Made by a program: the position numbers and the translations under genes. 32,270 nt of DNA, taken from assembly GCA_008632985.1 (NCBI GenBank), contig QPGO01000013.1:806001-838270 (forward strand). Direction: 5' to 3'. Position 1 is the first letter of the stretch. Each line of letters starts with the position of its first letter. The notes under the pieces were generated by a model. It did no database searches. It saw only the letters and a list, made by a program, of their open reading frames with translations, and was not told the DNA's origin. Below are positions 5,171-29,480 of the stretch, in pieces. The DNA comes from Psammoneis japonica (lineage: Eukaryota).

Positions 5171-5509
5171 ACCATGTCGTTACAGCGTTTTCTCTGCCGG
5201 ATGCACTTGACGACTATCGGTAAAGTACGAAGAAAACAAGGGAAGCTTGACCTTTTCAGCAATAGCATCGGCATTAGAAGAGCTCATCAATTGCCCTTGT
5301 ATGATATAGAACAATCTTTTTCATTATGTCGAATCGCCACTATGTTGTACTCAGTAATGGCTTGGCGTTTGCGGAAAGTAACAACAATCTACTACTAGTA
5401 ATATATTATGTACCAAACACATGATTCCCGCGTCTCTCGTCATTCAGAACTTTTTGCGAGTCTCACAAGAATCGCTCCGACGCCAAAAACAGAATACTAA
5501 TTCATGCCC

Positions 5510-6849: not shown

Positions 6850-6990
6850 TTGTTGTGACAGCTCCAGGTGTGGTGGAACCCCACTGCACTGACAAGGCCT
6901 CCAGACCCACTGCATTTCAACATGCAGTGCATGGCTCTGTCAGCATTGCAAGATGTGTCAAGGACACCTTTGTTGGGCTGTCACCTGCAT
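6850..6990. repeat. Dispersed direct repeat, copy 1 (copy 2 at ~9430-9585)
   Basis: acaaggcctccagaccca..gcatttcaa..gtgcatggctctgtcagcattgcaagatgtgtcaa.gacacc occurs at both sites. Confidence 0.85.
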
Positions 6991-9429: not shown

Positions 9430-9585
9430 GAGTTGTTCCAGCTTGGGGTGTGGTGGCTGGGACAACACCCTGGAGCCCACAAACAAGGCCTCCAGACCCA
9501 TGGCATTTCAAAATGCTGTGCATGGCTCTGTCAGCATTGCAAGATGTGTCAAAGACACCTTTTTTGGGCTGACACCTGTGCATGG
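9430..9585. repeat. Dispersed direct repeat, copy 2 (copy 1 at ~6850-6990)
   Basis: Same block as 6893-6990, with weaker similarity continuing downstream. Confidence 0.85.
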
Positions 9586-10486
9586 TCTGTGGTGTGCCAC
9601 TGGGCAACCACACTGCTCAACTTTTTGCAAGAAAAGTTTGTTGCATGTGGCAGCACCTTTGTGCAGCAGCACAAACTGCACATCCTTCTGGTGTCTCTTT
9701 GGCCAGAGCCAAGAGGCCAAGATGAAGACATGTTGCAGCCATGCTCGCTTGGCCCCAAGCACATGACACTCTGCCCAAATTGCAGCAAAAACTTGGCTCA
9801 GCAGCTTTGCACTGATTTTGCACTGTCGTGCTGTTTTCTTGGAGCCACACAAAATCAAGGTCTTTGAAGCAATGGCAGCAGCTTGGCCAGTGTCTTTGGG
9901 GGAGGCCCCTTTGGGGGGAGATCCCAGTGCCAACAGGTGGAGCTTTGGGCCCCGGCTAGCCTCATGCACAGTGCTCCATGGAATGCTCAACTTCTCATGC
10001 TTGTTGACAGTGTGGGTGACAATGCACAATGTGGTGCTTTTGAGTTGGTTTCTTGTGTTGCTGTCATGTAAAATTTTGTTGTCCAGAGGCAGCAGAGCTG
10101 GCAAAAAACTGCTGCGTGCACTTTGGCCACATGACAAGGTGCCACAATCCAGCAGGTGCAGTGTTGGCTGGAGTGGGCAGTTGTGGAATGGAAAGTCATT
10201 CTGCCTTTTTCTCTCTTGCTCATGTGGGTGACCACAGTTTGGCACCAGTTGGTTGGAGGCACAGTGCCAGCTCAGCAGAAATTGGCTGCAGCTTGAGTTT
10301 TTTTCTTTTTGTGATGATCATGTGCTCAACTTGCTCCCCAGCAATCTTCCTGCTGAAGCCAGCTGGAGTTGTCTTGCACTCATTGTTTGTCTCAACTGTG
10401 GGCCTCAACATGAGTCATGCAGTGAGACACATCCTGCTCTGAGATCCTGCAACCTTGACAAAGAAGTTGGGCTCAATTTTTTAGGC

Positions 10487-10511
10487 CACACACACACACA
10501 CACACACACAC
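10487..10511. repeat. (CA)n microsatellite
   Basis: Uninterrupted run of CA repeats. Confidence 0.95.
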
Positions 10512-12456
10512 CATTTCTCTTTTGACAGACTCAAATCAGCAATGAAATGTGGCTGTTCAGATCAGCCTCTTTTCAGCTCTCCTCTGGCAATGCACACAAC
10601 CTGCCACCCCTGGTGTGTTGCAGTCCACTCCAAAGTTGAGTCAAAAGGGGGGGGGGGGGACAGCGCTGCTCCTCCAACCACAGTCAGACTTGCTTTGCCT
10701 CTTGCTGAGCACTCTGACAGAAACAGAAGACAAAAAGCAAAGACCCAACTTTCCAAAAATTTGAAGCATGGCACCAAACAGCAAACAGAAGCCAAACAGG
10801 AGTTCTTTCTGGTGCAGGTGGTGAGAAAAGCAACCCTCCATAAATGTGCACCAGCATGGTGAGAGACCTCAAGACCCACATGTCAGAGAGTTGCGGTGCA
10901 GCACTGTTGATGCTGTGTGCTTGACAAAGCCCAACATTTGCTGGTGGCTGCAGTGCAAGACAACAAAAATGGGGGCCACACATGTTGGGCAGCAAGCACT
11001 GAAATGTGGAAATGTCCTGCAGTGCATCCCATTTTTTGGACATGTTTTCATGGTCTGGGTTTTCCTTCATTGTCAAAGGGGCAACCTTCCCAACAATGTC
11101 TTCTGCAAAAATGTCTGCCACAACTTGGCTCTCCTTGTTGCTGTGAGTGCTTTGAGCTCCACATGCATGCTGGCAGCAAGAAGCAAGAGGGAGCGCCAAC
11201 CTCTCCAGCTCAAGTGGACAACACACTGATCAAGCAACCCAGAAGTGACCTCTCCTTGCAGAAACAAACCCCCTCCCAAATGCTTTGTAAAATGAGCTCC
11301 CAGCAGTTGGTTTTTTCTGCAGATGGTGTGGCACACCACCAGTGCCAGCACAGATGTGCCAACAAGTGACCAGCATGCAAAACACTGCAAGCTGTGTGCC
11401 CTGCCATGATTGGCCAGGTTGCACATTGACAAAAGCACCACAAGGTGCAAGCAGTGACAGCAGTGCACCATGGGCCATTGTTGATCATGTGAATTTTTGT
11501 GACTCCAGCCAGAAAGATCCCTGCACTTGGCCCAGCAAGTGCACCATTCTTGCTGCAGCATGGGCGCATGCCATTTTTTGTTCCCCACAGTTCTTGAGAC
11601 AGGCATGTGCAGCCTGCACACCCAAGATGTGATGCAGGGGGCAACTGGCTTGCTGCATTGTTCAAATCCCCAAATGCCTTGGTTGCAGCTCCTTGCAAAT
11701 TAAAGGGCTCTCACAAAGACTGCACAGAGGAGGGCAGCAGAAGTCACATGCAAGTGCCAGTTGAAATCCATGCTGGGCAAACAGCACCAAAAAGTGCAAG
11801 ACATGATGTCTGGTGCTGCCATGCCAAATGCTCAAGCAGGCTGTGGCATGTCTCTCTCCACAGCTCCAGGTCAGAGCTGTGTGCAAGCTTGTTCTTGCTT
11901 AGCAGACAAGGGGTGGAGGGCCACACAGGTTGAGGAACACATGAGATTGAATTTGGAGAAAGAGGGCCAGCTGCACTGGTGTGGGGTGCCTTGGAAGGGC
12001 TCTGCTTTGGCCCTGACCTGCAGAAATGTAAGTGTGTTGATGAGAAGCAGCAACCCTGCAAATGAGAGCAGCTGCACAAAAAGCAAAACTTTGGTGCCTT
12101 GGGAGAGGAGCAAATGCTCCTCACAACATCCCACAAATTGGAGAAACACAGACAAGCAAAGACTTGCTGGAGATGGAAAGCCCTTTTCCCACCCACCCAC
12201 ATTGGCAGCAACCTCATGGCCACCGCCAATCCCACACAACAGAGGAGCTGCACTGCATGCACAGAACACACCATGCAGCCCCCCGCCAACAGTGGAGGAG
12301 TTCATCAACATGCACCCATGCATTGGACTCATGGCTCACAGACATTTTTTCCTGCTCCTTTTCTGCTCTTCACTCTTCATGGCTGTGCTGTCTGCCTCAG
12401 TTTGTGGAGAAGATTTGACATCAAAGTGCACATGTGTGCACAATCCTTTCAGGAGG

Positions 12457-13787
12457 ATGGTGTCCAAGGCCCCAGTGGCAGGAACTTGTGTGATTGGCAA
12501 GCTTTAAGAAATGAGAATGAAAATGGCACATGTTGTGTTCTTGTCATCACCACAAAACCATCCCATTTTCTGGCCATGCTTTTTGATCTGCAGGTCTGGG
12601 AGCAGCCCTCTGAAGCTGCTCTGATGCAATGCTCAATGGCTCACAAATCATGTTGACCAATTGACCACTGTTGTGCCCCTCAAGCTGTCCCCAACAATGT
12701 GATTGTGGACTTTGGATGCCCTTTCATTGTGATGACAAGCACAGTGATTGTCGGGCAGTGTGGAGATGCTTGAAACAGCTTGCTTGCCTTGTTGAAAGAC
12801 ATGCAACAAGATGAGCTGTGTTGGAGATTTTCCTGCCTGTTGCTCTCAAGCAAGAACACCATGGTCCCATGGTCAACAATTTTGTTGTCACAAAGGATGG
12901 AAAGAAGAGTCAAAGCACATTGCCGCTGTGCAGCAATGAGGATGCATGCCCTGACTTTCAGCACCTGATGGCAGAAATTTTGGGGCAGCAGAGCCAGGTT
13001 TTGAAACTGCTCATTCCTGCATTGGAGAGTCTGCATGAAGCAGGGCACTTGCATGCATGTTTCTTTCATCCTCCCATTGTTGATGCTCCTTGGATCTCAA
13101 AGGCACAACAAGGCCATTGTGGTGGGGATGCATTTGAAAACATCCAAGTTGGCTCTCATTTCCATCTTGTCCTTGCTCTTTAAAAAGAGCATGCTGAATG
13201 AAATTGAAATCCACCCATTGGCAGGATGCTGTCAACATGGGCTGTGACACTGTTGTGAATTGCGCTGGTCTTGGAGCATCAAATGTGTGCAATGATGGAG
13301 ACTTTGTTGGAGCTTGTGTGTTGTTCTGCTGCACTGTTGCCAAAGACAGGGTTGCTCACAAGGCAACAATGATGGTTTGCTTGTGGACACTGCAGCATTG
13401 ACCAAAGATGCACCATGCTGGGGAAGTGAGATGGAGCTGTGTTGTCTTGTCCCACGCAGTGACATGTTGCCAGTTGGCAGAAATTGCCAGCTGGAGCAAA
13501 ATGCCAGATGTTGAAAGTGAAATTTGGCCAGAAGAAAGGAGATTTCTTCTCCAGAATGCACGGTCACTCAGCATCAACATTGCTTGACAACACCCAGCAG
13601 GGTGGGAATGGATGGGCTTTTGACCTTGCTGGCTGGCAGTTCAATGTGAAGCAAACAACATTTGTGGCAAAGAAGAAAAGAAGCACAGGTGGCCCATGCT
13701 CATGATTGTGGCTTTAGAGAAGTGGGTGGGTGGGCTGCATTTGCTGGCATGGCAGCACACACTGCAGATCTGGTGGCCAATTTGCAA
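12457..13787 (+). pseudogene. Hypermutated D-amino acid oxidase pseudogene (paralog of 3835-5170)
   Basis: Aligns along the whole gene. It has frameshifts and a ~56-nt deletion (equivalent to 4581-4636) between CAG microhomologies. Both splice donors changed gta->gca, the stop changed TAA->CAA, and TpA and CpG are almost all converted. Confidence 0.93.
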
Positions 13788-13925
13788 ACCATGTCGTTGC
13801 AGCATGTTCTCTGCAACACATGTCACATTGCCAGGAACAAGATTCTTTGTCTTTCATTGCCATTCTCAACCAAATGCACTTTGTGATTGGCAACAAAGTG
13901 TGGAGAAAACAAAGCAAACTTTGTT

Positions 13926-14268
13926 TGGTGCAGATCTGAGGCAAGACCAACAAGAGATGGTGGTCTGTGCCTCCCCCTGCATGAGTGGGGGGTTGTCTTC
14001 CATGACATGCCCCCGCATCGGATGGCTGACGCAGAAGCAGTGCGCAAGCCCACAAGCACCATGCAAGCCACAGCAAGCTCACTCCTTTCTTTCATCAACA
14101 TTGCACTGCAACGTTGATGAGTTCAAAAGTGAGTTTTCACTTGCAGCCCATGCCACCCACCCTTTGCAGATCTCTGGCTGGAGCTTCAAATCCGGGTCAG
14201 GGGGGTGCCACAACCAACCAGAGAGCTTGTCCAAGAGCACTTCAGCCAAAAGAGGAAAGCAGAGTCGA
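13926..14268 (-). mobile_element. Insertion in the duplicated intergenic region: near-complete copy of an LTR-like repeat
   Basis: Absent from copy A (5240-5270). Its reverse complement matches 16369-16654 and then continues into 22697-22807. Confidence 0.75.
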
Positions 14269-14568
14269 GAGCAATGGAGGGCAATCAGCCCATCCATTTG
14301 CATTGACAGCAGAAGGCTCACCAATTGCTCAAGTGTGATGTGCAGAACAATCTTCTTGTTGAATTGCCACCATTTTGTGTTGGTTTGAGCATTTGCCAAT
14401 TGCAACAAGTCCAATGTGTCGCGACTTTGTGAGACAAGAAAAGTCTCGACTCAAAAGCATGTCCAGGAAAACAACAACAATCTGCTGCTGATGCTTCATG
14501 CAAGTGCATCATTCCCGCATCATGAATGTGTCCATGTCCTGCATCTCATCAAAAGAATTTTGTCCGCG

Positions 14569-15617
14569 TCATTCACAGATTTTTGCGAGTCTCACAAGAA
14601 TCGTTCCAACATCAAATGCAGCAATGCTGCTTTGTGCCCTCCCCCCCCTGCCCTTGGAGGATGAGGAGTGGTGGCCCTTCTTTCCACCCTTGCCCTTGGA
14701 GGACGAGGAGTGGTGGCCCTTCTTTCCACCCTTGCCCTTGGAGGACGAGGAGTGACAGCCCTTTTTTCCACCCTTGCCCTTGGAGGACGAGGAGCAGCCC
14801 TTTTTCCCACCCTTGCTGAGACTTGGTGAGCAAGAGGGTGGGTGAGTCGGAGCATCTGATGGGGTCATTGATGGGACCATGCTTGGAGCATCCGACGGGG
14901 TCATTGACGGCTCTGGGGTCATCGGCACCACGGGGCAAATGCTCTGTGGAGGATTGCCCAAATCAGTCTAAAGAGACAAAAAAGAAGCAACCAGTGTGAG
15001 CCAAGTTCATGGGGAACGACTGCATGCATGTCGCAACTTACAAACACGGTCCAACCAGCCTGATCGCCCGCCTCTAAGAGGGGAAAGATTCCGCAGTCAT
15101 TGCAACAAACGATCACATGAGTGTTTGTCACAGTCTCTTCATTGTCGTTCAATCCAGTCATCACAGCTTGCAGTCCACGGGGCAGGCTTGCCGAGTCAAG
15201 GTCCTGCGTCATGGTGGCGATTGTGGATGTGTGGGTGAAGGTGTCACCGTCAACACAGGGACCTGTTTGGACCGTTTGGGCCACCACCTGCAGATTTTGG
15301 TCCAATTCAAAAATCTGAACGTTTTTCACCGACATGGGCACCAAATCCTCCACTGGAACATTGTCTCGACCGTGAATCTCTGTCAAGCATGCCGTCTCAC
15401 TGACACCAGGACCCTCCATGGTTGTGTCATCGCACACCAAGCCAAAATTGAGGGTAAATTCGTACGTTCCCGGTTGACAAGCACAAATGTCTGTCCCAAC
15501 AGTCTGAGCACTAGCCTGCCAACCACACAGCAATGTGGCAGTCGCCATCAACAGGGTTCGCACCATCCGAGCCGTGCCTCCACGATGGTGTGGCGACCGA
15601 TCTGGGCCAACCGCCAT
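14569..15617 (-). CDS. Paralog of the 5510-6480 secreted protein, open but recoded (Tyr->His/Cys). Exons 15617-15042 and 14967-14569. May be a pseudogene
   Basis: Strong protein similarity (TDICACQPGTYEFTL, VQIFELDQNLQVVAQTV, NDCGIFPLLE). Intron 15041-14968 keeps gtaag and ttag, and both exons are open. The linker is PSMTPSDAP rather than poly-Pro. Tail repeats read KKGCH/HHSSSSKGKG. Confidence 0.65.
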
Positions 15618-16039
15618 TGCGCTTTGTTGCAAGTCGAAGAGCAATGCGTTGTGTTGTGTGCATTGAGAACTGTGATTTTTTGACGATGACAATGGACAAA
15701 GTGGTGCTGTGATGATCGCGGGAATGAATCACGGAACGTTCCATGCTGTGCCGCATGGCATGCCGGCATGCAATGTCCAGGCTCTTTGACACATCCTAAA
15801 TGGGCTGCATTGAACAACTTTAAAGTGAAGCAAAATGAAAGATGAACATCGCGGTTGCCGCGAAATTTGAAATTTTCATCCGTTGGATTTGTTCGCATGA
15901 CAGCACCACGCGGGGGGGGGGGAATGTCTCCGCACACACTGCCCAATCAATGGGTCGCTTGCTTTTTGTCGCTCTTGACTGACGCGTTCCAGGTCTAGGT
16001 GGGACCTCGCACCACTGAACTGTGACATCGACAGTTTTT

Positions 16040-16330
16040 TGAATCACGTCGCATGTCGCGCACGTAGATTTCTACGTGATTTTTTTGACATTTTGTGTCA
16101 TTTTACGGTGCACTCATTGAGCGATCCGTCCAACAACTTTTGACATTTTTTGTTACAGCGCGATTCTACAATGTCTTAAGAATCGCGTAGGGCAGGTGCA
16201 TTTGCAAAAACGTCTAGTGGCAAGAGGCACGATTGCACCACAAACTTGGCCGTTTATTTGATGTTGAAGATGAATGCATGCATCAATTAAATTCTCGTAC
16301 TGCGGAGCTCGCACGTGGAATTCTACGGGC
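16040..16330. promoter_or_regulatory. TpA/CpG-retaining island with palindromes
   Basis: CACGTAGA-tt-TCTACGTG at 16061-16078, CGCGATTCT-N11-AGAATCGCG at 16159-16187, and a degenerate second copy of the first motif at 16311-16329. Function unknown. Confidence 0.35.
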
Positions 16331-16334
16331 CCAA

Positions 16335-16654
16335 TGTCACACGGAGTCCCACCCAGGGCTGGAACGCGTCGACTCTGCTTTCCTCTGGTGGCCGATGCGC
16401 TCTTGGACTAGCTCTCTGGTTGTTTGTGGCATGGCCACCAGCCCCAGACCTCAAGCTGGAGCCAGCCAAGTCTGAGGCAACCCAGATTTGGAGCTCCAGC
16501 CAGAGAGCCGTGTGGCAAAGGGTGGGTGGTGAGGGCTGCAAGTGAAACTCACTCTCGAACTCAGCAACATTGCAGCATGACATTGATGGAAGAAAGGAGT
16601 GAGCATGCTGTGGCCCATGGGGAGCTCACAGGCTTGTGTGCTGCTTCTGTGTCA
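16335..16654 (+). mobile_element. Left part of a split LTR-like repeat (starts TGTCACA)
   Basis: Matches the reverse complement of ~14027-14268. Its terminus is the inverse of TGTGACA at 22801-22807. Confidence 0.65.
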
Positions 16655-19316
16655 AAAAGAAAGACAAAAATCTGCATTTTCAGTGCTGCCACTCCCTGGG
16701 TCGTGTGCTGGGTCTGGCAAAAGGGGAGGGCAACGAGATGGCCCAGTGGGTCTTGAAGGGAAATGGCAACGTTGTCCCCAGGCGGTCCGTTCGATGCTTG
16801 ATGACCGCCGAACTCAACAGCAACACTGAGAAGCGCAAGCGCAAGATTTTTGATCAGTGTGTTGAGTCACGTTGGGGTTCTGCCGCTTGCCCTGTGTCTC
16901 GTCCACGGGAAAGCAATGCATTCCACATGGAGATTCTGACGAGAAGGTTCCCCTGTATGACAAGTTGATCCACGCCAAGGTTGCCCTTCCTCAGGGTGAC
17001 AAGCCATGCAATGCCAAGGTCATTGGTTGCTCTGCAGATCCTGAAGGTCGCACCGTGGGCTCTTACAATGACAATCCCATCATGAACACACTTTTGTACG
17101 AAGTCGAGTTTCCTGACGGGGAGGTGAAGGAGCATGCGGCCAACGTCATCGCCAAGAATCTGCTCTCTCAGGTTGACTCCGAAGGCCACACACTCAACGT
17201 TTTTGACAGTGTCCTCGATTTCGCCAAGGATGACACCGCATTGACCAAGGACAACATGCATGCCAAGGTTGGCAAGCGGTCTCGTCTGCGCAAGACAACG
17301 TGTGGCTGGAAGTTTCTTGTGTCATGGAAAGACGGATCTGAGTCGTGGGTTTCCTTGAAGGACATGAAGGAATCCCACCCAGTGGAAATGGCCGAATTTG
17401 CCAAAGCAAGAGGCATGGATCATGAACCGGCTTTCCGATGGTGGATGCCGCACACACTCCGGAAGCGTGATTGCATCGCATCAGCGGTTGAGGCTCGTGT
17501 GCGACGTGTCACTCACAAGTGTGGAGTCAAGCCACCCAACACTGTCAAGGAGGCACTCGAGCTCGACCGACAGAACAGTGACAACCTGTGGGCAATGGCA
17601 ATCGAGAAGGCGATGCGTGACGCGGGTGTTGCCTTTGAAATGCTCGATGACGACACTCCAACTCCTGTCAGATGGTCCAAGCAATTGGGTCACCTTGTGT
17701 TCGATGTCAAGATGACCATGGCTGGGAAGGCTTGGTGGGTCCTAGATGGACACAAGACTTCCAACCCAGAAGGATCGACGCATGCAGGTGTGGCATCACG
17801 AGAAAGTGTGCGAATCGCTCCAACTTGTGCTGCTTTGAATGACATTGATGTCATGGCAGCGGATGTTCAGAATGCATGTCTGCAGGCACCGTCGTCGCAG
17901 AAGCATTGCATCACATGTGGCACCAAGTTTGGCATCGAGAACGTGGGCAAGTGTGGCCTCATCCGTCGTGCATTGTGTGGAGGCAAGTCTGCAGGACGAG
18001 ACTTCCGGAATCATCTACGAGCCTGCATGTTGCATGTCAGATTCAAGCCTTGTAGAGCGGACCCTGATGTTTGGATGCGTGAAGCACTCAAGGCGGATGG
18101 TGCTGAGTGTTGGGAGTGCGTCCTGTTGCACACGGACGATGTGCTGTGTGTCTCCAACAATGCTGAAAAGATTCTGTGGGAGGAAATCGGCAAGTGCTTT
18201 CCACTGAAGGAGTCCTCAATCGGTCCTCCTGGCCTGCATCTGGGAGGTCACCTTCGCAAAGTGGAGCTTGAGAGTGGAGCTGAGGCATGGGCCTTCAGCT
18301 CTTCGCAATGCACTCAAGCATCCGTGAAGAACATAGAGATCTGCCTGTTGGAGAAGGGAATGAAGCTGCTGTCCAAGGCTTCCACCCCTCTCAGCAGCTC
18401 GCATCATCCCGAGGTTGACACGACGCCCGAGTTGCAACCAGCAGAGGCAGCTCACTGTCAATCGCTCATTGGTGTCTTGCGTTGGATGGTGGAGCTTGGT
18501 CACGTTGACATTTGTCTGGAAGTGTCCATGATGTCCTCTCACCTTGCTCTGCCCCGAGAGGGACACCTTTCCCAGGTCTGCCATGTCTTCGCCCACCTCA
18601 AGAAGCATCACAGTGCGGAAATGGTGTTTGATCCCACCCATCCGGACATTGATGAAGAGTTGTTTGCATGTCGCGATTGGACCACCTCTGAGTTCGGTTT
18701 AGCCACAAAGGAGGAGATGCCTGCTGATGTGCCCCACGCTGGGGGATCAGGTGTGGTCACACGAGCCTTTGTCGACGTGGATCATGCGGGTGACTCCATC
18801 ACTCGTCGGCCCCACACTGGATTCTTGATCTGTCTGAATTCGGCACCCGTCTGTTGGATGTCGAAGAAGCAGACGAGTGTCAAGACGAGCTTGTTTGGGT
18901 CAGAATTTGCTGGCATGAAGCAGTGTGTGGAGCGCATTCGCGGACTCCGCTACAAGCTTCAAATGATGGGGATCCCGGTCATCGGACCGGCTCATGTTCA
19001 TGGAGACAACCAGTCTGTCCTGGCGAACACCTCCATCCCCAATTCGACATTGAAGAAGAAATGTCACAGTTTGGCACGCCACTTTGTTCGTGAGGGTGCG
19101 GCCCGGGACGAGTGGCGAACGGCATGCGTCAATGCGCACCTCAATCCCAGCGATCTGATGACTGAGGCACTGCCTTCAGGGGAGAAGCGCAGTCGGTTCG
19201 TTAGAATGACATTGCACTGTCTTGGAGGGAAGGTGGATTGGGCCATGTCGGTTGAACCACCTGCCAGTGCGGAGGGTTTTGCTGGAGTTCCCTGCCTGTG
19301 GAGTGGTTTTGTTTGA
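16655..19316 (+). mobile_element. Ty1/copia (diatom CoDi-type) pol 3' part: integrase C-terminal region, RT, RNase H. Catalytically decayed
   Basis: Motifs LGRVLGLAKGEGNEMAQW, TTCGWKFLVSWKDGSESWVSLKDMKES, GHLVFDVKM, DVQNACLQA, RALCGGKSAG, ADPDVW, LLHTDD, FVDVDHAGD, SLFGSEF, HGDNQSV and ARHFVRE are present. ORF 16872-19316 is 814 aa, with a frameshift near 16880-16960. Confidence 0.95.
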
Positions 19317-19417
19317 ATTTTCCACTTGATGGATGTTTGCATGCAGTTTGCCATCGCATGATGTTGATGAATCCCTTTGTTGGCAATCTGGCTTGACGAC
19401 ATGACCAAGTCTAGATT

Positions 19418-19561
19418 GAGGGGAGTGTTTTGGTCTGCCCATTGTTGGATCAGCGGGATTGCCTCTACGTTGAAAAGCCACTGCTCTGCAGTGCCAAGAG
19501 GGTGTGACGTGTTTGTGAGTTCGGTTCCTGGAAAGTGAGACTTTGTGCGATGTCTGCGACA
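19418..19561 (+). mobile_element. Putative polypurine tract (gaggggag, 19418-19425) followed by a short LTR candidate TGT...ACA (19426-~19561)
   Basis: A purine tract directly followed by TGTT lies just after RNase H. The right boundary is a guess because there is no second copy in the window. Confidence 0.5.
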
Positions 19562-19659
19562 TTTCCAGGACACCAGCACAAGATCGAGAGGTCCACTTGA
19601 GGATCCTCTCACAATTCGAATAGATCGCACTTTGATTGTTGATTCATTCTGTCGACACA

Positions 19660-21711
19660 GTTTTGGCAAGAAGCTTGGGCCCGGATCGCAAAAGAAGAAA
19701 AAGGAAGGAGGCAAGAACCCAGCGGAGGGTCGCAGTCAGAAGAACATGAAGAAGATGATCTCAGAAGCAGTGGCCTCTGAGCTGGCTTCTCGGGACAAAC
19801 AGGAGCAGCAACCCAATGCATCTGACGCCGATGATGCCCAAGCTGGTGCCCACCTGTCATCGTTGGTGCAGGCAGCATCTGCGTCGGCTCCTGCTGCGTC
19901 ACAGCCTCTGCCGCCACCACCTCCTCTGGCGCCTTCTGCTCCGCCTGCCCAAGCTTCTTTCTGTTCAATTTGAGGCTCTGGCTGTCACGCTTCAATCCAT
20001 TCTGCAACGCGCCGGCGCCAAGAAATGAAATGAAGGGACGGCGCTGTGTTCCCCATGTCTCCTCGCTTGAGGGGAGAAAGTGCTCCTTTTGTGCCATGGA
20101 ATCACAGTCGTCGATTCCCAATCATTCTGTTTTGAAATTTGTTGATCGCTGCATGGTCTCTGACATCACAATGGACACAAGCGACGAGACTGCGAACGGG
20201 AACGAGATGCGCACTGAGTTGGATTCGTGTGCCAATGTGGTTGTTGTTGGCAGAGGATCCTGCGTCTTGAACGACACCGGTCGCACCGCCCAAGTCAGCC
20301 CGTTCAACCCAGAATGTGAGTCGATGAAAGATGTGAGGATCGTTGATGCGCTCCTTGCATGCGACTGTCCGCATTCGATGAAGACATGCTTGTTGGTCCT
20401 TCACAACGCCTTGCACATCCCGGCGATGGACCACAACCTTCTGCCACCCTTTGTGCCATGAGAAGCAGGGGTGACGGTCAATGACGTCCCCAAGATTCAG
20501 ATCAAGGGATGAGAGCCGACAGAGGATGACCATGCCTTGGTGTTCTTGGATGTGAAGACACGGACTCCTTTGTCATTGTGGGGAGCATTCTCCTGCTTCC
20601 CAACCCGTTGTCCGACACTCCAGGAAATGAGAGACACCGACGATGCACTGGTGCTCACTCCAACTGGACACACCTGGAACCCTCACTCAGGTTCCTGTGC
20701 GCGCAATGAAGAGAGCATGTTGGACTGGGAGGGGAACATGTCAGACAAGCGAGACCGGGTGAAAATCCTGGCAGAGGATCTTCCGGATGAAGACGAGGAG
20801 CTCCGACTCTCCTCAACCATGACAAGTGTCGAGACGTGCATGATTGATCACAACATGACGTTGATTGACCACTTCGAAGCATGGGATGACTTGAGTGGAA
20901 CTCGTGGAACTGTTCGTGAAGTTGACAGTTCTCATGCTGTCTCATGTGATGTCTCTGTCACTCTTGATCCTGTTGCACTTGCAGAGAGCCTTCAAGATCG
21001 TCGCGATGTTGGAGTTTTTGCTGCTTCAGTTGGGTCTGCGCCAGTGGGACACGAAGATGACTCGGGTCAAGATGACAATGTAGACTTTGACATTTTCAAG
21101 GATGTCCAACTTGAAGACATTGTTGACGACCTTGTGGAGCACTTCGAGTCAGACCCTGAGGTCAATGTTGGTGGGACCACGGCATCAAAGTCCAAGGGTG
21201 CATCCCCAGAGCATCTGTCTAAGATCTGGCGGATGAGCACCAAGGATGCAGAGCGGACGATTGACAACACCACCCAACCACTGCATTGCTCCGAGGACCC
21301 TGCTCTCTCATGCAACTGCTCCACGAATGACAGAATGCTCTGACATCGGCGCATCTCTCAGCACTTCTTTATGGACACCTTCTTTGCGAGTGAGAAGGCT
21401 GGAAAGTCCACAAGGGGGTGCTCGTGCATGCAATTGTTTGTTGCGGACAAAGGCTTTGTCCATGTTGTCCCAATGCATGCTCGATCAGAAGTCCCTCAGG
21501 CTCTCAAAATGTTCATGAAGGAAGTGGGTGCACTGGAAGCGATTGCATGTGATGGCAACTCAGCGCAGAAGTCCGACAAGGTTCGGCAATTCCTTCACTC
21601 TGTTGGCACCAGTCCACGTCTGTTGGAGGAAGGAACGCCATGGTCGAACCGCGCTGAGTTGTGCGTTGGCCTGCTCAAGGAGGCCGTTTGCAAGGATGTG
21701 AAGGCGTCCTC
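19660..21711 (+). mobile_element. Ty1/copia (CoDi-type) 5' part: gag C-terminus, aspartic protease, integrase N-terminus and core. Decayed
   Basis: Lys-rich gag tail ending TLQSILQRAGAKK*. Protease RTELDSCANVVVVG..NALHIPAMDHNLLPPF. Integrase PEHLSKIW..AERTI..TTQ, FMDTFFA, CMQLFVADKGF and EEGTPWSNRAELCVGLLKEAV. In-frame TGA stops at ~20459 and 21341. Confidence 0.9.
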
Positions 21712-22696
21712 TCGCCACTTGCTCCAAGCCAGCCCACACTCCCAGTGCACCCACAGGTGCGGCAGAAGTTCTCGTCAACTGGCCCAAATTGGCGTCGCCA
21801 TGCTGTGATGCCCATCTGGTTAAAATGAGGCTGCACAGGAAAGAGAGTGTTGCTTTCTTTTTGAGTGGATGCAGAGAACCCACACTTCGACAGCAAACAA
21901 CAATGACACCATTCAGAAAAGGATGCAAACGCAGCACCAAATGAGGGGAACAACCTTGCTTCCAAGGATGAATCTTGTCTTCAACAAAAATTGACTTGAT
22001 TTTGCACTTGCAGGCTCTGGGACAAAAGTGAAAAATTCACCACTCAGAGCAGCAAGTTTGGCATGCCGGAAAACAAAAGAAGGGAAGTTCAGGACTTGCA
22101 GGCACGAAACAGAGAGCCTTGATGACATGACAAGAAGGGTGTTGGAAGAAATGACATTCTCACATGAAATTGACACTGGATCTGGAATGGAAATGTCTGA
22201 CCATGCAGCAGATGGATGGTCATCAGAGGCAGCGCGGATGGTGTGTCCAAACAATGAACACTCGTGAGTGCCACAACAGGGACAGTGCTTTCACCACATG
22301 GGGTGAAGAACTTGATTGGGCAGCTGGGAAAGAAAAATTGGTTGAGGGCTGGTGGGTGTGTGGATGGAAGCAGTTTGCACAGATGACACCGCTGTTGTTG
22401 GTGGATGTTTCTGAAGCATGCAGAATTTCTGTGAGATCCTGTGCAGAAAATGCATTGGGTCTGCAAAAAAAATGCCAAAAGGAACAACAAGCATGCAAGC
22501 CATGAGGCTTTGACTCCAGTCATTTTCCACTGAAAAATGTTGTGTGTCGTGCTGAGATGAGGGCATGCCATTGGCAGAAGTGGCCAAAATTGTCCTGAAG
22601 GACTTGACAAATTACCGTCTGAGAAGGGTGACATCAGTGCAAGAGCGCACGCAGAAACACATGCAGGGTTTCTTGGTGGGTGGCTGCCACAAAAAG

Positions 22697-22807
22697 TGCT
22701 TCTGTGCCAGTCATCTGATGCAGAAGCAGGCCATGAAGGACACACACCCCACTTGTGCAGGGAGGGGGCACAGACCACCATCTCTCACTGGCCTTGGATC
22801 TGTGACA
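22697..22807 (+). mobile_element. Right part of the split LTR-like repeat (ends TGTGACA)
   Basis: ggcacagaccaccatctc..gatctg matches the reverse complement of 13930-13975. Confidence 0.65.
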
Positions 22808-22872
22808 AAGGCACGTCAAACAACAATGCAATGGCCCCACACTGCACTGCACTGTGTGACATGGATGAAAAT

Positions 22873-22989
22873 NNNNNNNNNNNNNNNNNNNNNNNNNNNN
22901 NNNNNNNNNNNNNNNNNNNNNNNNNNNNNNNNNNNNNNNNNNNNNNNNNNNNNNNNNNNNNNNNNNNNNNNNNNNNNNNNNNNNNNNNN
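22873..22989. other. Assembly gap (117 N)
   Basis: Run of N, followed by a (CA)n tract at 22990-23014. Confidence 1.
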
Positions 22990-23014
22990 ACACACACACA
23001 CACACACACACACA
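22990..23014. repeat. (CA)n microsatellite abutting the gap
   Basis: Run of AC repeats. Confidence 0.95.
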
Positions 23015-24477
23015 ACATTGAACATGACAGCACTGTCTCTGCACTCACATTGTCAGCATTGAAGCATTTTTCACATCAACAGTTTCAAACTCAATGGAAC
23101 ATTTGCTTGGCAACAAAGAGTGGTGGCCAAAATTTCAGCTCATTTTCTGCACATGCACAGAGCTGAAAAGTTGCTTCATGCTGCCATTTTCAAAAAGTGT
23201 GCTCCATTTGCACAAGGCGCTGAGCTGCTCTACATCACTGAAGCCACAAGCAAATCAACCCAGTGTCAATTTTCTGTTGTTTGCACAGCAAATTTCTGCC
23301 TCCCTCAAGTTGACAAGGGAGAAACAGTCACATGAGTCATCAGCTTGATCAAAAACTTTGCACCTGGCTGCGTTTCTTGGCTGCTGCACAACAAGGGAGC
23401 CCCAATGATTTGCTGCAGACCCAGCGGGAAAGGAAACTGCCAGGCTGCAACTCTGCTTGCACCATCTCCATCAGCCCATCCAGGCCACCTCTGCTGCCAC
23501 ACTTTCCTTGTCTCCCAACACCACCCCAGCCTCCAGCCAAAGGAGGGGGGCCATTGCTGTTGCTGCTGAAAGCCAAAGGCAAAGAAGCACCACCAAGTTT
23601 TGAGCTGCCTCACTTCTGGACAACTTGTGTCCCAACTCTGGGTGGGGCTCTGTGAAACATGGGCCCACAGAATTCTGTGCATGAGCTCCACAGTTGGTGT
23701 GTTGGGCAGCAAACACATTTGTCTTTGACACCCAAATGAAAAGCCACTTTTGCATCACCATGGACTGCAGCACTTCTGTCATTGCCATGTTGTTTGCATG
23801 GTGAGCACAGAGCTCATGTTCAACCCATTTGAGCATTTTTTTCCAAGTGTCGCACAACTGATTGAAGCCACAGCTTCGCTCTTTTTTGTGGCCATGTTTG
23901 GCTCAATTGATGTGAGCAATTTGGGAAGCATCTTTGGAAGTGAGATCAATGAAGGCAGTCTGATTGTCAGCGCCTTGTGGGGCATTTTCAGCACAATTTG
24001 TGTGCACAAGAAAACACACGGGATCTGTCCAGCATTCCCAAATGCCCCCATTGCACTGATTGACAGACTGTTTTCATTCAAATTCCATGTGACTTTCTTT
24101 GACAGTCTCACTTCCAAAGACATCCCCCAAATTCTGGTGTGGTTGACAAGATTGTGGAGCAAAAGGCATGGCACTTTGCGTGCCACACATTTGGTGCCAC
24201 TGATGGAATCAAATGTGGTGCACTGCTTGGCACAGAAGCCAGCAAAGTCATTGATTGTCCATCACTTGGCAGCACAGGTGGGTGGCTTGTGTGCTGCACA
24301 CAACTTGCCATTGCAAGTGGCGTGCATGATGATGGTGCATTGCCAGGCAGAGAATGTGCCACTGTTGACAGTGTGGCACTTTGACCTGCACCAGGGGCTT
24401 TGGACATGGGGGTGCATGGCAGAGGGTGGCACTGAAGGTTCAAAAGAAAGGGTCAAACAGCAGCTGTGTTTTCCAAA

Positions 24478-24577
24478 GGTGCATCACTTGGCTCAGAAGA
24501 TGGAGCTGATGAAGACACAGTCAATGGTGCAATGCTTGGCTCAAATGATGGATGTGGCAATGACCTGACACTCACAA
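24478..24577. repeat. 100-bp direct repeat, copy 1 (copy 2 at 29233-29332). Encodes PSxEPSIAP..SSAPSSEPSDAP on the minus strand
   Basis: Identical to copy 2 except for one A/G difference. Confidence 0.95.
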
Positions 24578-25461
24578 CAGACCATTTTGCATGGAATGGA
24601 ACAGACAGATTTTTTCCAAAGTGGGGTGTGCGGAAGATTTGAGCCAAACTTCACCTGCGCACAGTTGTGGCCAAGTTGCCACACCCAATGATGATGAATT
24701 TCTCACCCGCTCCCTCACTCTCAGGGATGTCATGGGTTGAGGAACTTGCAAAACTTCTCAAAGTCCCTGTTGGAGCAATTTTGTGTGTTGAAATGGATGG
24801 ATCAAAGCCTTGCGGGGTTGACAATTGCTGCTTGCCACAAGTGCAGCGAAACACACAAGGCAGACACAACAATGGACCCCAACACTTGTTTCATTGACAG
24901 TCATGGTTTCCAGTTGCCCCCAATGGCAAAGGCCAGAGACCCGAAGATGCAAAAGGAAGGAAAACTTGCATTTGCAACAACACTTTCTGTCATGGAATGG
25001 GGCATTCATCTCACATGGTGTGCGTGCCAAAGAATTTTGTCACAACCATCACAAGTGCTCTTGGAGTCAAACCTGAGCACCGAGAGAAAGTTTTGAATGA
25101 TCCACGCAGTCAGGTGATTGCACCGTGGCATTTTCATCCTGAACATCAGCATTGTGACAAAAGTTGAGCAAGTGCTGGCACCTGAATCTGTGCAACAGCA
25201 ATGCGACACTCCGGGATTGGGAAAAGAAAAAGTGGGTTGGCTCCCCCCCCCCAACTACAAAGTTGGGTCACACAAAGAGATGGAAGAGCAAAGGCATGAG
25301 GTGCAGCCCCAAGAGCAATGGAAAGTGTCTTCTGGCATTGCATTGGACTCACCAGAGTGGCTTGGGCCACTTCTGACTGCACAGAGTTGCGCCAAGAGGA
25401 ACATGAAGACAAATGTTCCCAGTGGCAATGCTTCAAGGGGTGAAATTTCCAATCCTTTTAA

Positions 25462-25855
25462 GGCGGGTCAGTCACCACTTTTTTTAGCTCGAATTTGGTC
25501 GAATGGCTTGTGTTTTGCATGATTTTTCCTGAATTTCACCGTGCTTCACCATGGTGAAAACAACAAGCCACAAGTCTGTGACGGAGGTGGTCCATCTGCC
25601 AACACTCATTTGTTTTGTGTTTGTCATGTGTCAAAGATTGTGTGTGCATGAAAAGTTGATAGATGGCACGCTGCGTTTTTGAGAAATGTTGATGATTGTC
25701 ATCATCGTCGTGCTTCGATCGCGGTGTTGATGGTTCTCGTTTTCGTGCGCAATCGGGTGCAACTGTGAACAATTGTTGCACTCAAAAACAAGCACCACAA
25801 AAAATCTCATTCAAATGCAACGGTGGTTCTAGGATGAACGCGGGGGTGACCCGCC
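25462..25855. mobile_element. Putative 394-bp MITE with 9-bp TIRs (GGCGGGTCA/TGACCCGCC) and a TTAA target site
   Basis: ttaa|ggcgggtca at 25458-25470 and tgacccgcc|ttga at 25847-25859. The right TSD would be TTAA->TTGA, matching the local mutation signature. The interior keeps more CpG than its flanks. Confidence 0.6.
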
Positions 25856-27629
25856 TTGATGATGTCGCCAATGCCCCGAGAACAGCTGGGTCAAGTGTGA
25901 CAAAGTTGGTCACTCCAGATGCTGGCACCCCGTCTTCCACTGCAAGCATGCTGGCAGAGAAGCACGCTGTGGTCATGACAGCTCGAGCTCAGAGTTTCAA
26001 TGAAGAACTGGAGGACAAAAAGTTGGAGGTGGAGCATTTGAGTGAAATGGTGGAGCGACTGAAGGAAAAGATGTCCGACAAAGACAATGAAACAGGAGAG
26101 CTCCGCATCAGAGCAGATCAGCAAGGGAAAACAACAGAGATGTCAAACAGTTGGATTGCCAGAATGGGCCATTCTGGCATGCAGTCCAGGTTGACAAGGG
26201 GTTTTGAATTGATGATCTGTGTGTGTTGCCAGGAGTTGCGTGCATCCACCCCACAAAGAAGCTGAAGCTGCAGACTCAGCAATCAAGCAAGGACATGGCT
26301 CCACATCAGAAGATTGGGAACACAAGAGTTGTCATTGAACAGGTTGATGGGCATGCAAAGATGACGGGTGGACACTTCAACTGTGTCATCCATTGCTTCA
26401 GCTTGACCTTGCTCTGTTGTTGATGCAGATTTGTTTTCTGATGCAGAACTTTCATCCTGCCATGTGCGTTGCATTGATGGAAAATGCAGAGAACATCCCT
26501 GCCAAGCAGAGATTTGCTGGCATGGTGCTGCAGCCAATGGTTTGGCAGATGTGCATGGACAGGTTCACCTTTGGGGCACAGCAAGTGAGCACAAGAGGTT
26601 TGCGGAGCTCATGGAACAAGAGCCGGAAAAGTCATTGGTCGATGTTGGTGAGATGGTGCTTTGTGAAGACCGGCCTTGGAAACTCTGAGAGGAGCACAAC
26701 AAATGCACTGGAACTGACAACTGGCTGTGCAACAACCCCCAGTGGTTGTGTCTCATTGCATTGTTCTGAGATGCTTGAACAGAGCTTGCGCTGCTGGGTT
26801 GTCCTCAGAAAAACACTTCCGATCCAGCATTTGTTGATGGCATGTGTCATTGCCATTCATTTCACAATGAGGTCTGACACCCAAGTTGATGTTTCTCCAT
26901 GTGTTCTTCAAGGCACGTCTCTGAGCTTCCTCTTCTGTCTTTGGAGCTTGGCAGAATTGCATTTCTGAAAGTCCCTGAGTTGCGCCATGCCGGTGTTGCT
27001 GATTTCCTGCAATCCAGCAACATTTGTCCATCATGACAGGCTTGGGAGTGCTTCTCTCTTCACCCCCCAATGATGGCACTGGGTGTAGAGCACACAGCAA
27101 CAGTGCAGACATTGACCAAAACCAGCAGCACACAAAGCACAACAGCTGTCAATCACTCCAACAATGCGCCCAAGATTGTGCCCATCTTTTGCAAAGGTGG
27201 TTGGCTCAACTTGCAAGACCATGAAAACAAGACATGGATGGAGCTCTTTTCACTCACCTTTCTCTGCCCTCTCTTTCTGATTCTTGTTCACAGATGCAAA
27301 CTGTTTTGACAGCACACACAGTTTTGTCTTGTTGTCCAAGAATGCAATCGTGCGAAGCTTCAATTCTTGGTGATCAAGAACCCGTTGGAGCGCCGTGCCA
27401 TCCTGATGGTCTTCTGGCACTTGCTTTCACCTCTGCAGCCATGGCACTTGTGAACTGAGGAAACGGCAAGCTCAGGGCTCTCAATTGCAATGTCCTCAAA
27501 CTTGACAAGAAACTGCCCCCTGGAGCAAAGATCACAGCATGTCTTCAGCTCACATTTCAATTTCACATGTTTGTGTCTTTGAAAGAAAGCCACCATCATG
27601 AGATTCTCAAGCAGTTCATAAATTTTCAC

Positions 27630-29090
27630 TCACGGGTCTCCAGTGTCAATGGCAAAGAAGGAACCAGATGCACCTTTGTTCTGATTGAAAGCTTGCACCA
27701 GATGAGGTGCCTCTGCCTCAAGAGAGACAAAGCCTTTTGTGCACTTTGTCAAGTCATCTTTTTGGAGCTTGTCCCCACACTCAGAAGTGGTGTTGGCTCC
27801 ACAAGCACTCAAGAAGCTCTTTGGCTGTGCAACATTGCATTGCTCTGGTTTGTCCTTTGCAAAATGGCACCCAGCTGCCTCAGTCTTAGACAAGCATGAT
27901 TTGTTCAGGTGGTTGTGAGGGTTGAAAGAAGTCAGATTCTTGGCATCATTTTCAGAGAGCTTGCCACGAGGCGCAACTTTTCCCGCGGCATGTTTCCTTG
28001 TCATGACCGTGCTTGGCATCGCCAGTTTTCAATCAAGTTGCCTGACATTGCAGTTGAAATTACAACAAAGGGCCCTTTCAGAAAAGCATTCAGCCACAAC
28101 AGTGACATGCGCAGAAACCCTGTCCAACGTCCATGTGTCATCGAGCTTGTCACTTCAAAGTGTGCACTCCGCCACTCATCGCAAACACAAAGACATCTTT
28201 GATTCTTGATTGATGCTTGCTTCTTGATTGACATTCAATTCTGGAGGGTTGCTAGATTCCTCATCAATGGGTGCATTGAAAATTTCTAGAGCTGTCTTCT
28301 CGCCAACACCCGGAAGACCTGATTGACCAGGCATGCCATCACACCCACAAAGAGGAGCGCCAAAGATCTGAAAGACTGAGTGACCAAAGGAATGACAAGC
28401 ATGAGGAAGTGCAGCCATTTTCCCTCTTTCTGACAAAGCTCTTTCCATGTTGTTGCTCTCCATGTCAAAGAAGCGGACACTCCAAGTGTGATGGGAGTCG
28501 ACAATCAGCACTTTCTTTTGCCCGAACGCAAGCACATCAGAGTCTCCAGAAATGACCACTTCTGTTCAATCCCCAGTGACAGGATGGTGCCAGAGCTGTG
28601 AGTCTGCTTCCTCTGGTGCAATGATGGAAGACACCATGAATGAGTCACAAACCTTCTTGGCCACAAGAATGCACAGAGGTTCATCTTGCAACAAGTTGTT
28701 CCTCTCATCAGAGTTGGAGTTCGTGTTGTCTCTTCTGGCATGTTCACGCCTCTTCCATTCAGAGTCCCTTCCATCAAAAGCAACAAAGAGCTTGTCACCA
28801 AGATCACACATTCTGGCAAGATAATTCGGTGTTGAAGAAAAGTCCCGCAACGAAGGCCCGCAGTCTCCATTTGTGTGTGCGTGCCTGTGTCATTGGGCAC
28901 ACATGTGCAAAAGTCTGGCAACATCAAAGCCAATCACTTTTCCTTGAAGACCAAGCTCGTGGCTTGTCTTGAGAAAGTCGTTGAACCTTCTGCACAGTGA
29001 GAGGGGCAGCAAATTGTTCTCACCTGATGATGACTCAAGTGTCTTGCAGCGTTTGAGGCCAAAATCTTCCGTGCACCCCACTTCATCTGG
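27630..29090 (-). pseudogene. XPG/Rad2 (EXO1/FEN1-like) 5' nuclease pseudogene with a downstream SAP-like motif
   Basis: Motifs in the expected order across shifted frames: GLQGKVIGFDV, FVAFDGRDSEWKRREHARR, IIAPEEADSQL, VISGDSDVLAFG, LCGCD..GLPGVGEKTAL (H3TH), then NVAQPKSFLSACG..GDKLQKDDL (SAP-like). Confidence 0.8.
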
Positions 29091-29119
29091 CCATCTTCCA
29101 TGTAAAATGGTCTGTGGTG

Positions 29120-29480
29120 CTTGGTGTGGAGGCAGGAGGGTGTGAGTGATGGTGTGTTGCTTGCTTCCAAAGATGGCTTTGTTGATGGCGGTGCTTCACT
29201 GGGCATCACACTTTCAACTTGCCAACTCTGATGGTGCATCACTTGGCTCAGAAGATGGAGCTGATGAAGACACAGTCAATGGTGCAATGCTTGGCTCAGA
29301 TGATGGATGTGGCAATGACCTGACACTCACAATGGTGCTTGCTGTGGAGGCAGCAGGGTGTGAGTGATGGTGTGTTGATTGCTTCCAAAGATGGTTTTGT
29401 TGATGGTGGTGCTTTGCTGGGCACCACACTTGGCAACTCAGCCAAGCAGTGGAGTTTTCAATGGCACACTGCATGAAGAA
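29120..29480 (-). pseudogene. Relic of Pro/Ser/Thr (PSxxPSxAP) repeat coding sequence, including copy 2 of the 100-bp repeat
   Basis: Minus-strand translations PSSEPSIAPLTVSSSAPSSEPSDAPS and MPSEAPPSTKPSLEASNTPSLTPS. Internal duplication 29133-29200 / 29347-29430. Confidence 0.55.

Follow-up and report, generated by a model that had tools for sequence, protein, structure and literature searches.

The locus examined here raises the question of why a degraded copia retroelement should have lost nearly all of its TpA dinucleotides while CpG is still abundant in it, and whether this loss belongs to the element or to the DNA in which it lies. The element is part of a stretch of 32,270 nucleotides from the diatom Psammoneis japonica (contig QPGO01000013.1, positions 806,001–838,270 of the forward strand), the whole of which was analysed and is hereafter called the window (positions 1–32270), regional confinement being assessed inside it alone. 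The first-pass annotation of this stretch had treated the TpA loss as a decay property of the copia element, a view that has to be given up since the loss covers a domain of ~24 kb and a further tract of ~2 kb and takes in a pseudogene copy and unclassified repeats. The change is specific to one dinucleotide, symmetric between the two strands, regionally limited and of DNA-level origin. We consider it likely that it was produced by a regional, TpA-specific editor or mutator that acts at the DNA level on gene-free DNA and turns TpA into TpG or CpA.

TpA depletion across the window and in the copia element

The expected numbers of TpA and CpG were derived from base composition and are given as observed/expected ratios (o/e), per kb and in 250-bp bins, while depleted and normal tracts were called by a two-state segmentation of TA. 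The depleted segments are 1755–4136, 6772–16064 and 16325–31093, with a TA o/e of 0.04–0.07, and the normal segments are 1–1754, 4137–6771, 31094–32270 and a 260-bp patch at 16065–16324, with a TA o/e of 0.50–0.77. The depleted tracts hold 84 TpA in 26,152 bp (3.2 per kb) and the islands 261 in 5,822 bp (44.8 per kb); over 1755–4136 and 6772–31093, TpA is ~14-fold rarer than in the gene-bearing islands. On a per-kb scale the TpA o/e is 0.00–0.14 in nearly all of 2001–4000 and 7001–31000, where TG and CA stand at 1.5–2.3. The right edge of the large domain, at ~31094, falls inside a single bin, with the TA count switching from 0–1 to 22 per 250 bp. The o/e of AT, AA and TT in the window shows no depletion, which means that neither an overall AT→GC pressure nor biased gene conversion accounts for what is seen. 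The tracts and the parts of the element are as follows:

6772–31093, no strand: TpA-depleted domain of ~24 kb, containing the copia element, copy B of a duplicated block and unclassified repeats, and broken by the patch at 16065–16324; TA o/e 0.05 (6772–16064) and 0.04 (16325–31093), TG+CA o/e 1.83 and 1.71, respectively
1755–4136, no strand: second depleted tract of ~2 kb, a spacer separating two gene islands; TA o/e 0.07, CG o/e 0.34
16696–19316, plus strand: 3' part of a Ty1/copia pol gene (integrase C-terminus, reverse transcriptase, RNase H), to which residues 468–532 and 565–1331 of polyprotein P0003 map
19317–20125, plus strand: non-coding spacer of ~800 bp between RNase H and gag; in 19001–20000 the o/e is 0.07 for TA and 0.62 for CG
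20126–21712, plus strand: 5' part of a copia polyprotein (gag, protease, integrase N-terminus), to which residues 15–525 of P0148 and 1–397 of P0003 map

Within the limits of the element (16696–21712) there are 16 TA against ~271 expected (o/e 0.06) and 247 CG against ~358 expected (o/e 0.69), and 13 of the 16 TA lie after position 17100, so that the original observation of scarce TpA and abundant CpG in the element is borne out; per kb, the TA o/e is 0.00–0.10 and the CG o/e 0.57–0.78 over 17001–22000. The consequences for the encoded protein were assessed by aligning the element proteins with the best 120 of 944 homologs (E ≤ 1e-5, from 8,000 candidates scored). The frame at 16866–19316 is open over 816 aa (P0001) and has four Tyr residues, 0.49% compared with 3.92% in the 120 homologs, in keeping with the shortage of Tyr noted at first pass, while His amounts to 4.66 vs. 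2.68% and Cys to 4.04 vs. 1.58%. Conserved Tyr columns were defined in the alignment of reverse transcriptase (RT) and RNase H as those with Tyr in at least 80% of the homologs, and at these 21 columns the element reads Cys 10 times, His seven times, Arg twice and Tyr twice; the four conserved Tyr columns of gag, protease (PR) and integrase (IN) read Cys (three) and His (one). All 25 columns taken together give Cys 13, His 8, Arg 2 and Tyr 2, a loss of 23 of 25 that includes the catalytic YxDD box, which reads HTDD in the open frame. Most of the conserved positions with a different residue are unchanged (W 13/13, D 27/28, G 38/40).

The individual motifs that had been read as altered tyrosines agree with the homologs, in which Tyr is found in 118 of 120 at HTDD (YxDD), 119 of 120 at ALCG (ALYG), 115 of 120 at both NACL (NAYL) and THKCG (THKYG), and 58 of 59 at AELCVG (AELYIG), with HGDN (YGDN) corresponding to Y in 60 and F in 27 of 120. 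The proposed correspondence of ctc-tga-cat to L-R-Y is likewise supported, as the TGA at 21341 falls on an Arg in 59 of 59 homologs and the following CAT on a Tyr in 58 of 59. It had been considered that active family members might naturally carry His or Cys at these places; the homologs encode Tyr at the named positions. A comparison at the DNA level points the same way, as 16 metagenomic relatives have a TA o/e of 0.50–1.01 and a GC content of 0.39–0.49, against a TA o/e of 0.08 and a GC content of 0.54 in the open reading frame (ORF) of the window. Codon by codon, TA is kept at 4% vs. 33–52% for other dinucleotides in a comparison with seven metagenomic relatives, which are too diverged for the TG:CA ratio to be read, synonymous turnover being a confounder.

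Full-length homolog polyproteins mapped by tblastn place the limits of the element at 16696–21712 instead of the 16872–21711 given previously, with P0003 residues 468–532 at 16696–16890 and residues 565–1331 at 16926–19223. The best homologs are 55–65% identical (E = 0), all homologs carry PF07727 (RVT_2), and the homology to copia elements of marine protists spans PR, IN, RT and RNase H, with all parts of the polyprotein mapping to the window. The element's own Pfam RVT_2 score is 21 bits against a cut-off of 31.6, as is expected from its heavy missense change. Three in-frame TGA stops interrupt 20126–21712, at 20459, 20510 and 21341, and the first and last of them lie opposite Arg in 53 of 59 and 59 of 59 homologs, respectively. 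Compared with the Ty1/copia long terminal repeat (LTR) retrotransposons of marine protists, the element shares the RVT_2-type polyprotein and differs in having one internal LTR-sized spacer and a circularly permuted order (C-terminal IN/RT/RNase H, spacer, gag/PR/N-terminal IN) relative to colinear copia. Some 70 integrase residues are absent at its outer ends, and no direct repeat flanks it in the window, which leaves it without a flanking LTR pair. The spacer at 19317–20125 gave no homolog match and has no second copy elsewhere in the window, and presumably accommodates one LTR together with the beginning of gag. The copy is thus a rearranged, catalytically dead relic and not an intact member, and its permutation goes back either to two truncated tandem copies with one common LTR or to an integrated one-LTR circle.

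The duplicated block and the map of CpG decay

A segmental duplication inside the window provides an internal control for the direction of the change, with copy A used as a stand-in for the ancestor of the block. Its two copies are:

3774–6482, no strand: copy A, in which TpA is normal, with a gene resembling D-amino-acid oxidase (DAO; plus strand) and a convergent Pro/Gly-rich gene (minus strand)
10041–15619, no strand: copy B, the segmental duplicate of 1409–6482 according to blastn pairs, hypermutated, with its DAO copy a pseudogene

The duplication of ~5 kb comprises two genes and a spacer, and across the gene part only the second copy is hypermutated. The blastn pairs (A with B) are 1409–2142 with 10041–10776, 2232–2639 with 11099–11506, 3774–5197 with 12389–13814, and 5438–6482 with 14567–15619, and the background divergence of the two gene halves, measured at sites outside TA, CG, TG and CA, is 0.10 for the 3774–5197 pair and 0.14 for the 5438–6482 pair. 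In the 3774–5197 half, the 50 TpA of copy A have become 22 TG, 22 CA and five other dinucleotides in copy B, with one kept, and in the 5438–6482 half, 31 TpA have become 11 TG, eight CA and nine others, with three kept. Pooled over both halves, 63 of 81 TpA are now TG (33) or CA (30) and four are kept. The opposite pattern, with TG or CA in A and TA in B, occurs at one site in the first pair and at two sites in the second, and AT, AA and TT are kept at 67–81% in the same alignments. As a result, the TA o/e is 0.70 in the genes of copy A and 0.05 in copy B. The DAO copy in B has four in-frame TGA, three of them out of CGA, and 136 of 348 compared codons are changed, among them all nine Tyr codons (three to His, five to Cys and one to Gly). 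It is clear from these numbers that both TG and CA arise, as had been proposed from the element, where the conserved Tyr columns are divided between 13 Cys and eight His.

Copy B retains the two introns of DAO (identity 74/95 and 65/88) as well as the intergenic DNA, and is therefore a DNA-level duplicate that never passed through RNA, which excludes transcript editing for the block. The genes of copy A are spared and copy B is hit, which speaks against duplication alone as the trigger. The spacers are depleted in both copies, and there the exchange of TG for CA or the reverse is the most frequent double change (19, 12 and 6 sites), which is the outcome expected if ancestral TpA or CpG sites mutated separately in the two copies once the block had been duplicated. 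The two copies also differ in a coding tandem repeat, which has a unit of 39 nt at 5514–5652 in the convergent gene of copy A and of 42 nt at 14645–14816 in copy B, so that the unit length has changed.

The balance of outcomes is maintained beyond the block, as TG and CA counts on the plus strand of the three depleted tracts are 861/852, 1013/1036 and 218/230. Runs tests on the order of outcomes gave no significant sign of strand-coordinated clusters (smallest P 0.09), and in the A/B pair the choice of TG or CA is independent of purine or pyrimidine flanks (TG:CA of 12:7 for YTAY, 9:8 for RTAR, 7:11 for RTAY and 4:4 for YTAR). The TA still present in the depleted tracts are enriched for YTAR, with 14 of 84 in TTAA and 10 of 84 in CTAG, a 5' A in seven and a 3' T in four. 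All eight YTAR sites of the A/B pair were mutated, and for this reason the residual TA may be new mutations.

The same block separates TpA loss from the decay of CpG. In the 3774–5197 half, 82 CpG have become 38 TG, 30 CA and 11 others, with three kept (96% lost), and in the 5438–6482 half, 32 of 63 are kept (49% lost). The two halves of B have thus lost 98 and 90% of their TpA and kept 4 vs. 51% of their CpG, at background divergences of 0.10 and 0.14, which upholds the earlier claim that TpA loss is independent of CpG decay. The accompanying claim that it is also faster agrees with the degree of saturation, from which it is deduced in place of a measured rate: with ~93–98% of TpA lost at ~10–14% divergence elsewhere, TpA must have turned over much faster than other sites. 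Along the window, the CpG o/e is 0.03–0.15 in 7001–14000 and most of 22001–31000 and 0.57–0.80 in 15001–22000, and in the element CpG-type changes (to His, Trp, Cys, Gln or stop) affect 11 of 40 conserved Arg against the 23 of 25 Tyr lost. TpA loss and CpG decay are therefore spatially uncoupled. The deamination of 5-methylcytosine yields the same products, TG and CA, and has left its mark on the window too, where one half of B shows this change at 68 of 82 CpG; it differs in its substrate and in its map, with a CpG o/e that ranges from 0.03 to 0.80 within one TpA-depleted domain.

Other Tyr-poor copia proteins can be compared on this basis. P0055, a 1362-aa open polyprotein and the one Tyr-poor sequence of the 120 homologs, reads Cys at 16, Tyr at seven and His at three of 26 conserved Tyr columns, and it keeps 40 of 41 conserved Arg while 19 of 26 Tyr are lost, which sets TpA loss cleanly apart from CpG decay in this protein. 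Two of 150 cluster representatives from public collections, P0383 and P0354, lack Tyr entirely; at the Tyr columns the counts are His 6/Cys 5 in the one and His 7/Cys 4 in the other. The skew of P0055 toward Cys is absent in the element of the window (Cys:His 13:8), in P0383 (5:6) and in P0354 (4:7).

Explanations for the loss of TpA

The editor or mutator that we favor would replace A by G where T precedes it, on either strand (equivalently T by C), in DNA that is gene-free, repeat-rich and presumably silent (the dead copia element, the host-gene duplicate and unclassified repeats). Its action would end sharply at the edges of gene units, sparing introns and 3' intergenic DNA, and would bring TpA loss near to saturation, while CpG decay would proceed separately, to completion in some tracts and to about half in others. 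We infer that silent chromatin is the target and that the process may serve genome defence. As regards chemistry, a TadA/ADAT2-like enzyme that deaminates adenine to inosine, of the kind put forward for Bigelowiella natans, is a tentative suggestion by analogy, which we hold to be possible without preferring it outright. The modification of thymine at TpA (to 5-hydroxymethyluracil or similar, by a TET/JBP-type oxygenase), with mispairing to G and T→C change, would yield exactly CA and TG at the self-complementary TpA, and dinoflagellate DNA reportedly contains hydroxymethyluracil preferentially at TpA and TpC. TpC is however not depleted in the window (TC o/e 0.98), and no flank preference was found in the sites compared that points to either enzyme, so we regard this chemistry as unlikely. 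A further reading would make the pressure on TpA a genome-wide default from which gene units are protected by transcription-coupled or open-chromatin repair. In its favor, normal TpA coincides with the gene units, together with their introns and 3' intergenic DNA, in surroundings that are depleted, and the intermediate TA at the DAO gene's 5' end would fit a leaky boundary. The hypermutation of B. natans, by contrast, was found in two regions only and in 11 of 15 lines, and was read by its authors as regulated (10.64898/2026.01.13.699255), which leaves a default pressure rather improbable in our estimation. Targeting of silent DNA and protection of genes nevertheless remain two readings that the window does not separate.

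The remaining explanations fare considerably worse. If retrotransposon RNA had undergone ADAR-like A-to-I editing that was then fixed by reverse transcription and integration, the 5' U/T neighbour would match the preference of ADAR (10.64898/2026.01.13.699255), and P0055, mostly changed by sense-strand A→G (Cys 16 vs. His 3), would be in line with this. In the element of the window, on the other hand, eight of the 21 changed Tyr read His, which is a sense T→C, and a copy with HTDD can scarcely have arisen by its own last transposition, except through editing during that cycle. In addition, the intron-bearing duplicate is hit symmetrically (33 TG vs. 30 CA) and ~20 kb of DNA outside the element is depleted as well. 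The first-pass rejection of ADAR-type transcript editing is upheld; for the whole domain such editing is refuted, and as a contribution to the pattern it is very improbable. An equally slim chance is given to a sequencing or assembly artefact in which a modified base at TpA is misread and TA still exists in the cell, an idea that draws on the fact that the only run matching the stretch (X1) may be the window's source and brings no independent chemistry. Strand-specific misreading would give all CA or all TG, however, while the window has the two interleaved without run structure; contigs of 1–2 kb in X1 match it without a single difference; the same tracts show ordinary CpG decay, indels and 10–14% divergence from copy A; and three more Tyr-poor copia proteins exist in public collections. 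Finally, the low TpA could be a natural trait of this copia lineage or the result of selection against TpA (codon usage, UpA avoidance), and a mild under-representation of TpA (o/e 0.5–0.9) is indeed common and seen in the relatives. The homologs, though, keep Tyr at the affected columns (115–119 of 120, AELCVG 58/59, HGDN Y60 and F27), and the depletion is 14-fold and includes non-coding DNA and a pseudogene, by which this explanation is refuted and left with a negligible probability.

Several observations weigh against the regional editor as we have described it. The polarity we assign depends on one paralog pair and on protein homologs at 55–65% identity in place of a family consensus. Because TpA is self-complementary, sequence alone cannot separate adenine deamination from thymine modification, and the silence of the affected DNA is itself a supposition. 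The edge at 3750–4136, the 5' end of the DAO gene, is soft, with ~20 TA per kb (islands 45, tracts 3) and normal CpG, and the hypermutated state may be leaking a few hundred bases into an apparently intact gene unit. The 260-bp patch at 16065–16324 has normal TpA (11 TA) and a CpG o/e of 1.34 inside the depleted domain. Summed X1 contig depth over 16003–16669, which includes this patch, is 135,494 compared with ~30–56 for single-copy DNA, and the patch either belongs to a repeat of very high copy number that seems to be young or protected, or is an insert resembling organelle DNA or rDNA; it gave no tRNA or Rfam match. The 16:3 ratio of Cys to His in P0055 leaves room for a strand-biased component in retroelements. 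Lastly, X1 is possibly the assembly source of the window itself and in that case would not be independent support.

The X1 data nonetheless describe the variation among copies of this DNA. Contigs of the run were mapped to 12001–32000 at a likeness of at least 80%, and 5,070 were placed. At 2,552 places that differ from the window, A>G is found 451 times, G>A 515, C>T 473 and T>C 493 times, with transversions at 65–91 each, and this excess of transitions in all four directions fits sister copies with an independent choice of TG or CA. The depth of window-identical contigs is ~28–36 in depleted tracts, that of the right-hand island ~56, and the copia region sums to ~180–340. The depleted tracts may thus be present as two diverged alleles or sub-populations, as ongoing hypermutation would produce.

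Known systems and other features of the window

The closest parallel is a preprint on mutation-accumulation lines of B. natans, in which two stretches of integrated viral DNA received 231 of the 302 nuclear mutations (Mettrop et al., 2026, 10.64898/2026.01.13.699255). All but one of these insert mutations (230 of 231) changed A→G or T→C, each of the 230 at a TpA; the rate was ~1000-fold that of the baseline, with hypermutation in 11 of 15 lines (10.64898/2026.01.13.699255). The targets were integrated DNA of nucleocytoplasmic large DNA viruses (NCLDV) as well as virophages, an ADAT2 homolog was proposed as a candidate DNA adenine deaminase, and clusters poor in TpA and rich in CpA and TpG were described, with reverse-transcriptase and DDE-endonuclease Pfams enriched among TpA-depleted coding sequences (10.64898/2026.01.13.699255). 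The window shares with this system the exclusive change of TpA to TpG or CpA on both strands, the AT→GC direction, the regional character, and the TpA-poor clusters rich in CpA and TpG. It differs in its host, here a diatom and there a rhizarian chlorarachniophyte, and in its targets, which in the window are an LTR element of the copia type, a duplicated segment with host genes, and repeats that are unclassified. The depletion is also deeper and saturated, with an o/e of 0.04–0.08 compared with a Rho of 0.45 for the NCLDV insert. Moreover, CpG decay co-occurs here and can be mapped against TpA loss, and what is seen is a long-term footprint, as opposed to de novo mutations. A foreign origin of the targets would fit the copia element; copy B is a host-gene duplicate, and the remaining tracts are without recognisable domains. 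By these likenesses, the footprint in the window matches what the same kind of process would leave in a second lineage and on new targets.

Fungal repeat-induced point mutation (RIP) resembles the pattern in its regional, dinucleotide-specific transitions and in leaving repeats and transposons riddled with missense changes and stops while genes are spared. The change in RIP is C→T, mainly at CpA, and creates TpA, the opposite of the present case, where TpA is depleted 14-fold and CpA and TpG stand at an o/e of 1.7–1.8. According to the abstract on RIPCAL, both repeats are mutated in RIP, whereas the genes of copy A are untouched here, and in the window we found no evidence of duplication as a trigger. 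Metazoan ADAR hyper-editing has A→G change, a 5' U/T preference and repeats as targets in common with the window (10.64898/2026.01.13.699255). It differs in acting on RNA, and so on one strand of a DNA copy, and cannot reach an intron-bearing duplicate or intergenic DNA. ADAR is not known outside animals. Our literature searches (diatoms, TpA hypermutation, general) returned no report of TpA-specific DNA hypermutation beyond the B. natans preprint, and none in diatoms.

The same process in a diatom would make TpA hypermutation a cross-lineage phenomenon, and candidate enzymes could be narrowed to genes common to both genomes. Three points go beyond the main text of the preprint, namely the polarised host-gene duplicate with one copy mutated as a control, the evidence against duplication by itself as the trigger and for the sparing of introns and 3' intergenic DNA in gene units, and the direct demonstration that CpG decay follows a separate map. 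The terms CpG, LTR, copia, pseudogene, context and trinucleotide are absent from that main text, and its supplementary tables may list LTR elements or flank contexts. It is conceivable, though we would put it forward with less than even confidence, that an active DNA editor guided by chromatin operates in diatoms and eliminates TpA from all silent DNA, be it transposons, foreign DNA or surplus copies of host genes. Such a "reverse RIP" with AT→GC direction would be identical with the system of B. natans and hence an old and widespread defence of the stramenopile–alveolate–rhizarian (SAR) lineages, not a peculiarity of a single alga. If this were the case, it would drive the pseudogenisation of duplicates, raise local GC content, remove TAA and TAG stops, and could seed CA/TG microsatellites. 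For annotation the effect is immediate, as depleted tracts yield spurious ORFs, Tyr-free database "proteins" (P0055, P0383, P0354) and domain scores below threshold, and pipelines should flag the signature. In the window, TAA and TAG are lost from the depleted tracts and only TGA stops are left, which accounts for long spurious ORFs; 86 stop-to-stop frames of at least 120 aa were counted in the six frames of its 32 kb. A Pfam search of 49 ORFs out of the depleted tracts found no credible family, and Rfam and tRNA searches of the window gave nothing useful. A dinoflagellate origin of the DNA was rejected, as a 15-nt spliced-leader motif had no match in the window at up to two mismatches and the DAO introns are of the usual GT-AG type.

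Two microsatellites lie in depleted tracts, (CA)12 at 10487–10510 and (AC)12 at 22990–23013, the latter directly 3' of a gap of 117 N at 22873–22989. AC repeats are reported to be very common in B. natans (PMC13746701), and it may be speculated that TpA→CpA change in TA repeats is an origin of CA/TG microsatellites.

The gene content of the window is concentrated in the islands. Besides copy A, these are:

1–1754, plus strand: membrane-protein-like gene without a Pfam family, in an island with TA o/e 0.63
31094–32270, no strand: right-end island, TA o/e 0.77, CG o/e 1.00

The central island (4137–6771) has a TA o/e of 0.70 and a CG o/e of 0.97. Its DAO-like gene (Pfam DAO, E 2.3e-15) has exons at ~3971–4456 and 4545–5170 on the plus strand and GT-AG introns at 3876–3970 and 4457–4544. 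These introns keep two and six TA in copy A, and the 3' intergenic DNA between its convergent genes has 20 TpA in one 250-bp bin, so that selection on codons does not explain the islands. The organism-named entries among the 120 best hits of the DAO exon are diatoms at 47–56% identity, including Ditylum, Cylindrotheca, Attheya, Thalassiosira, Seminavis, Nitzschia, Fistulifera, Pseudo-nitzschia and Fragilaria, with the exception of one Symbiodinium. From the named relatives of this gene and of the left-island ORF, the DNA was assigned to a diatom or near relative that stands apart from all annotated species, and B. natans was rejected as its source; the protein collection searched contains no identical sequence. 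In the left island, the ORF at 2–430 is 54% identical to a predicted protein of Phaeodactylum tricornutum, its sole organism-named match.

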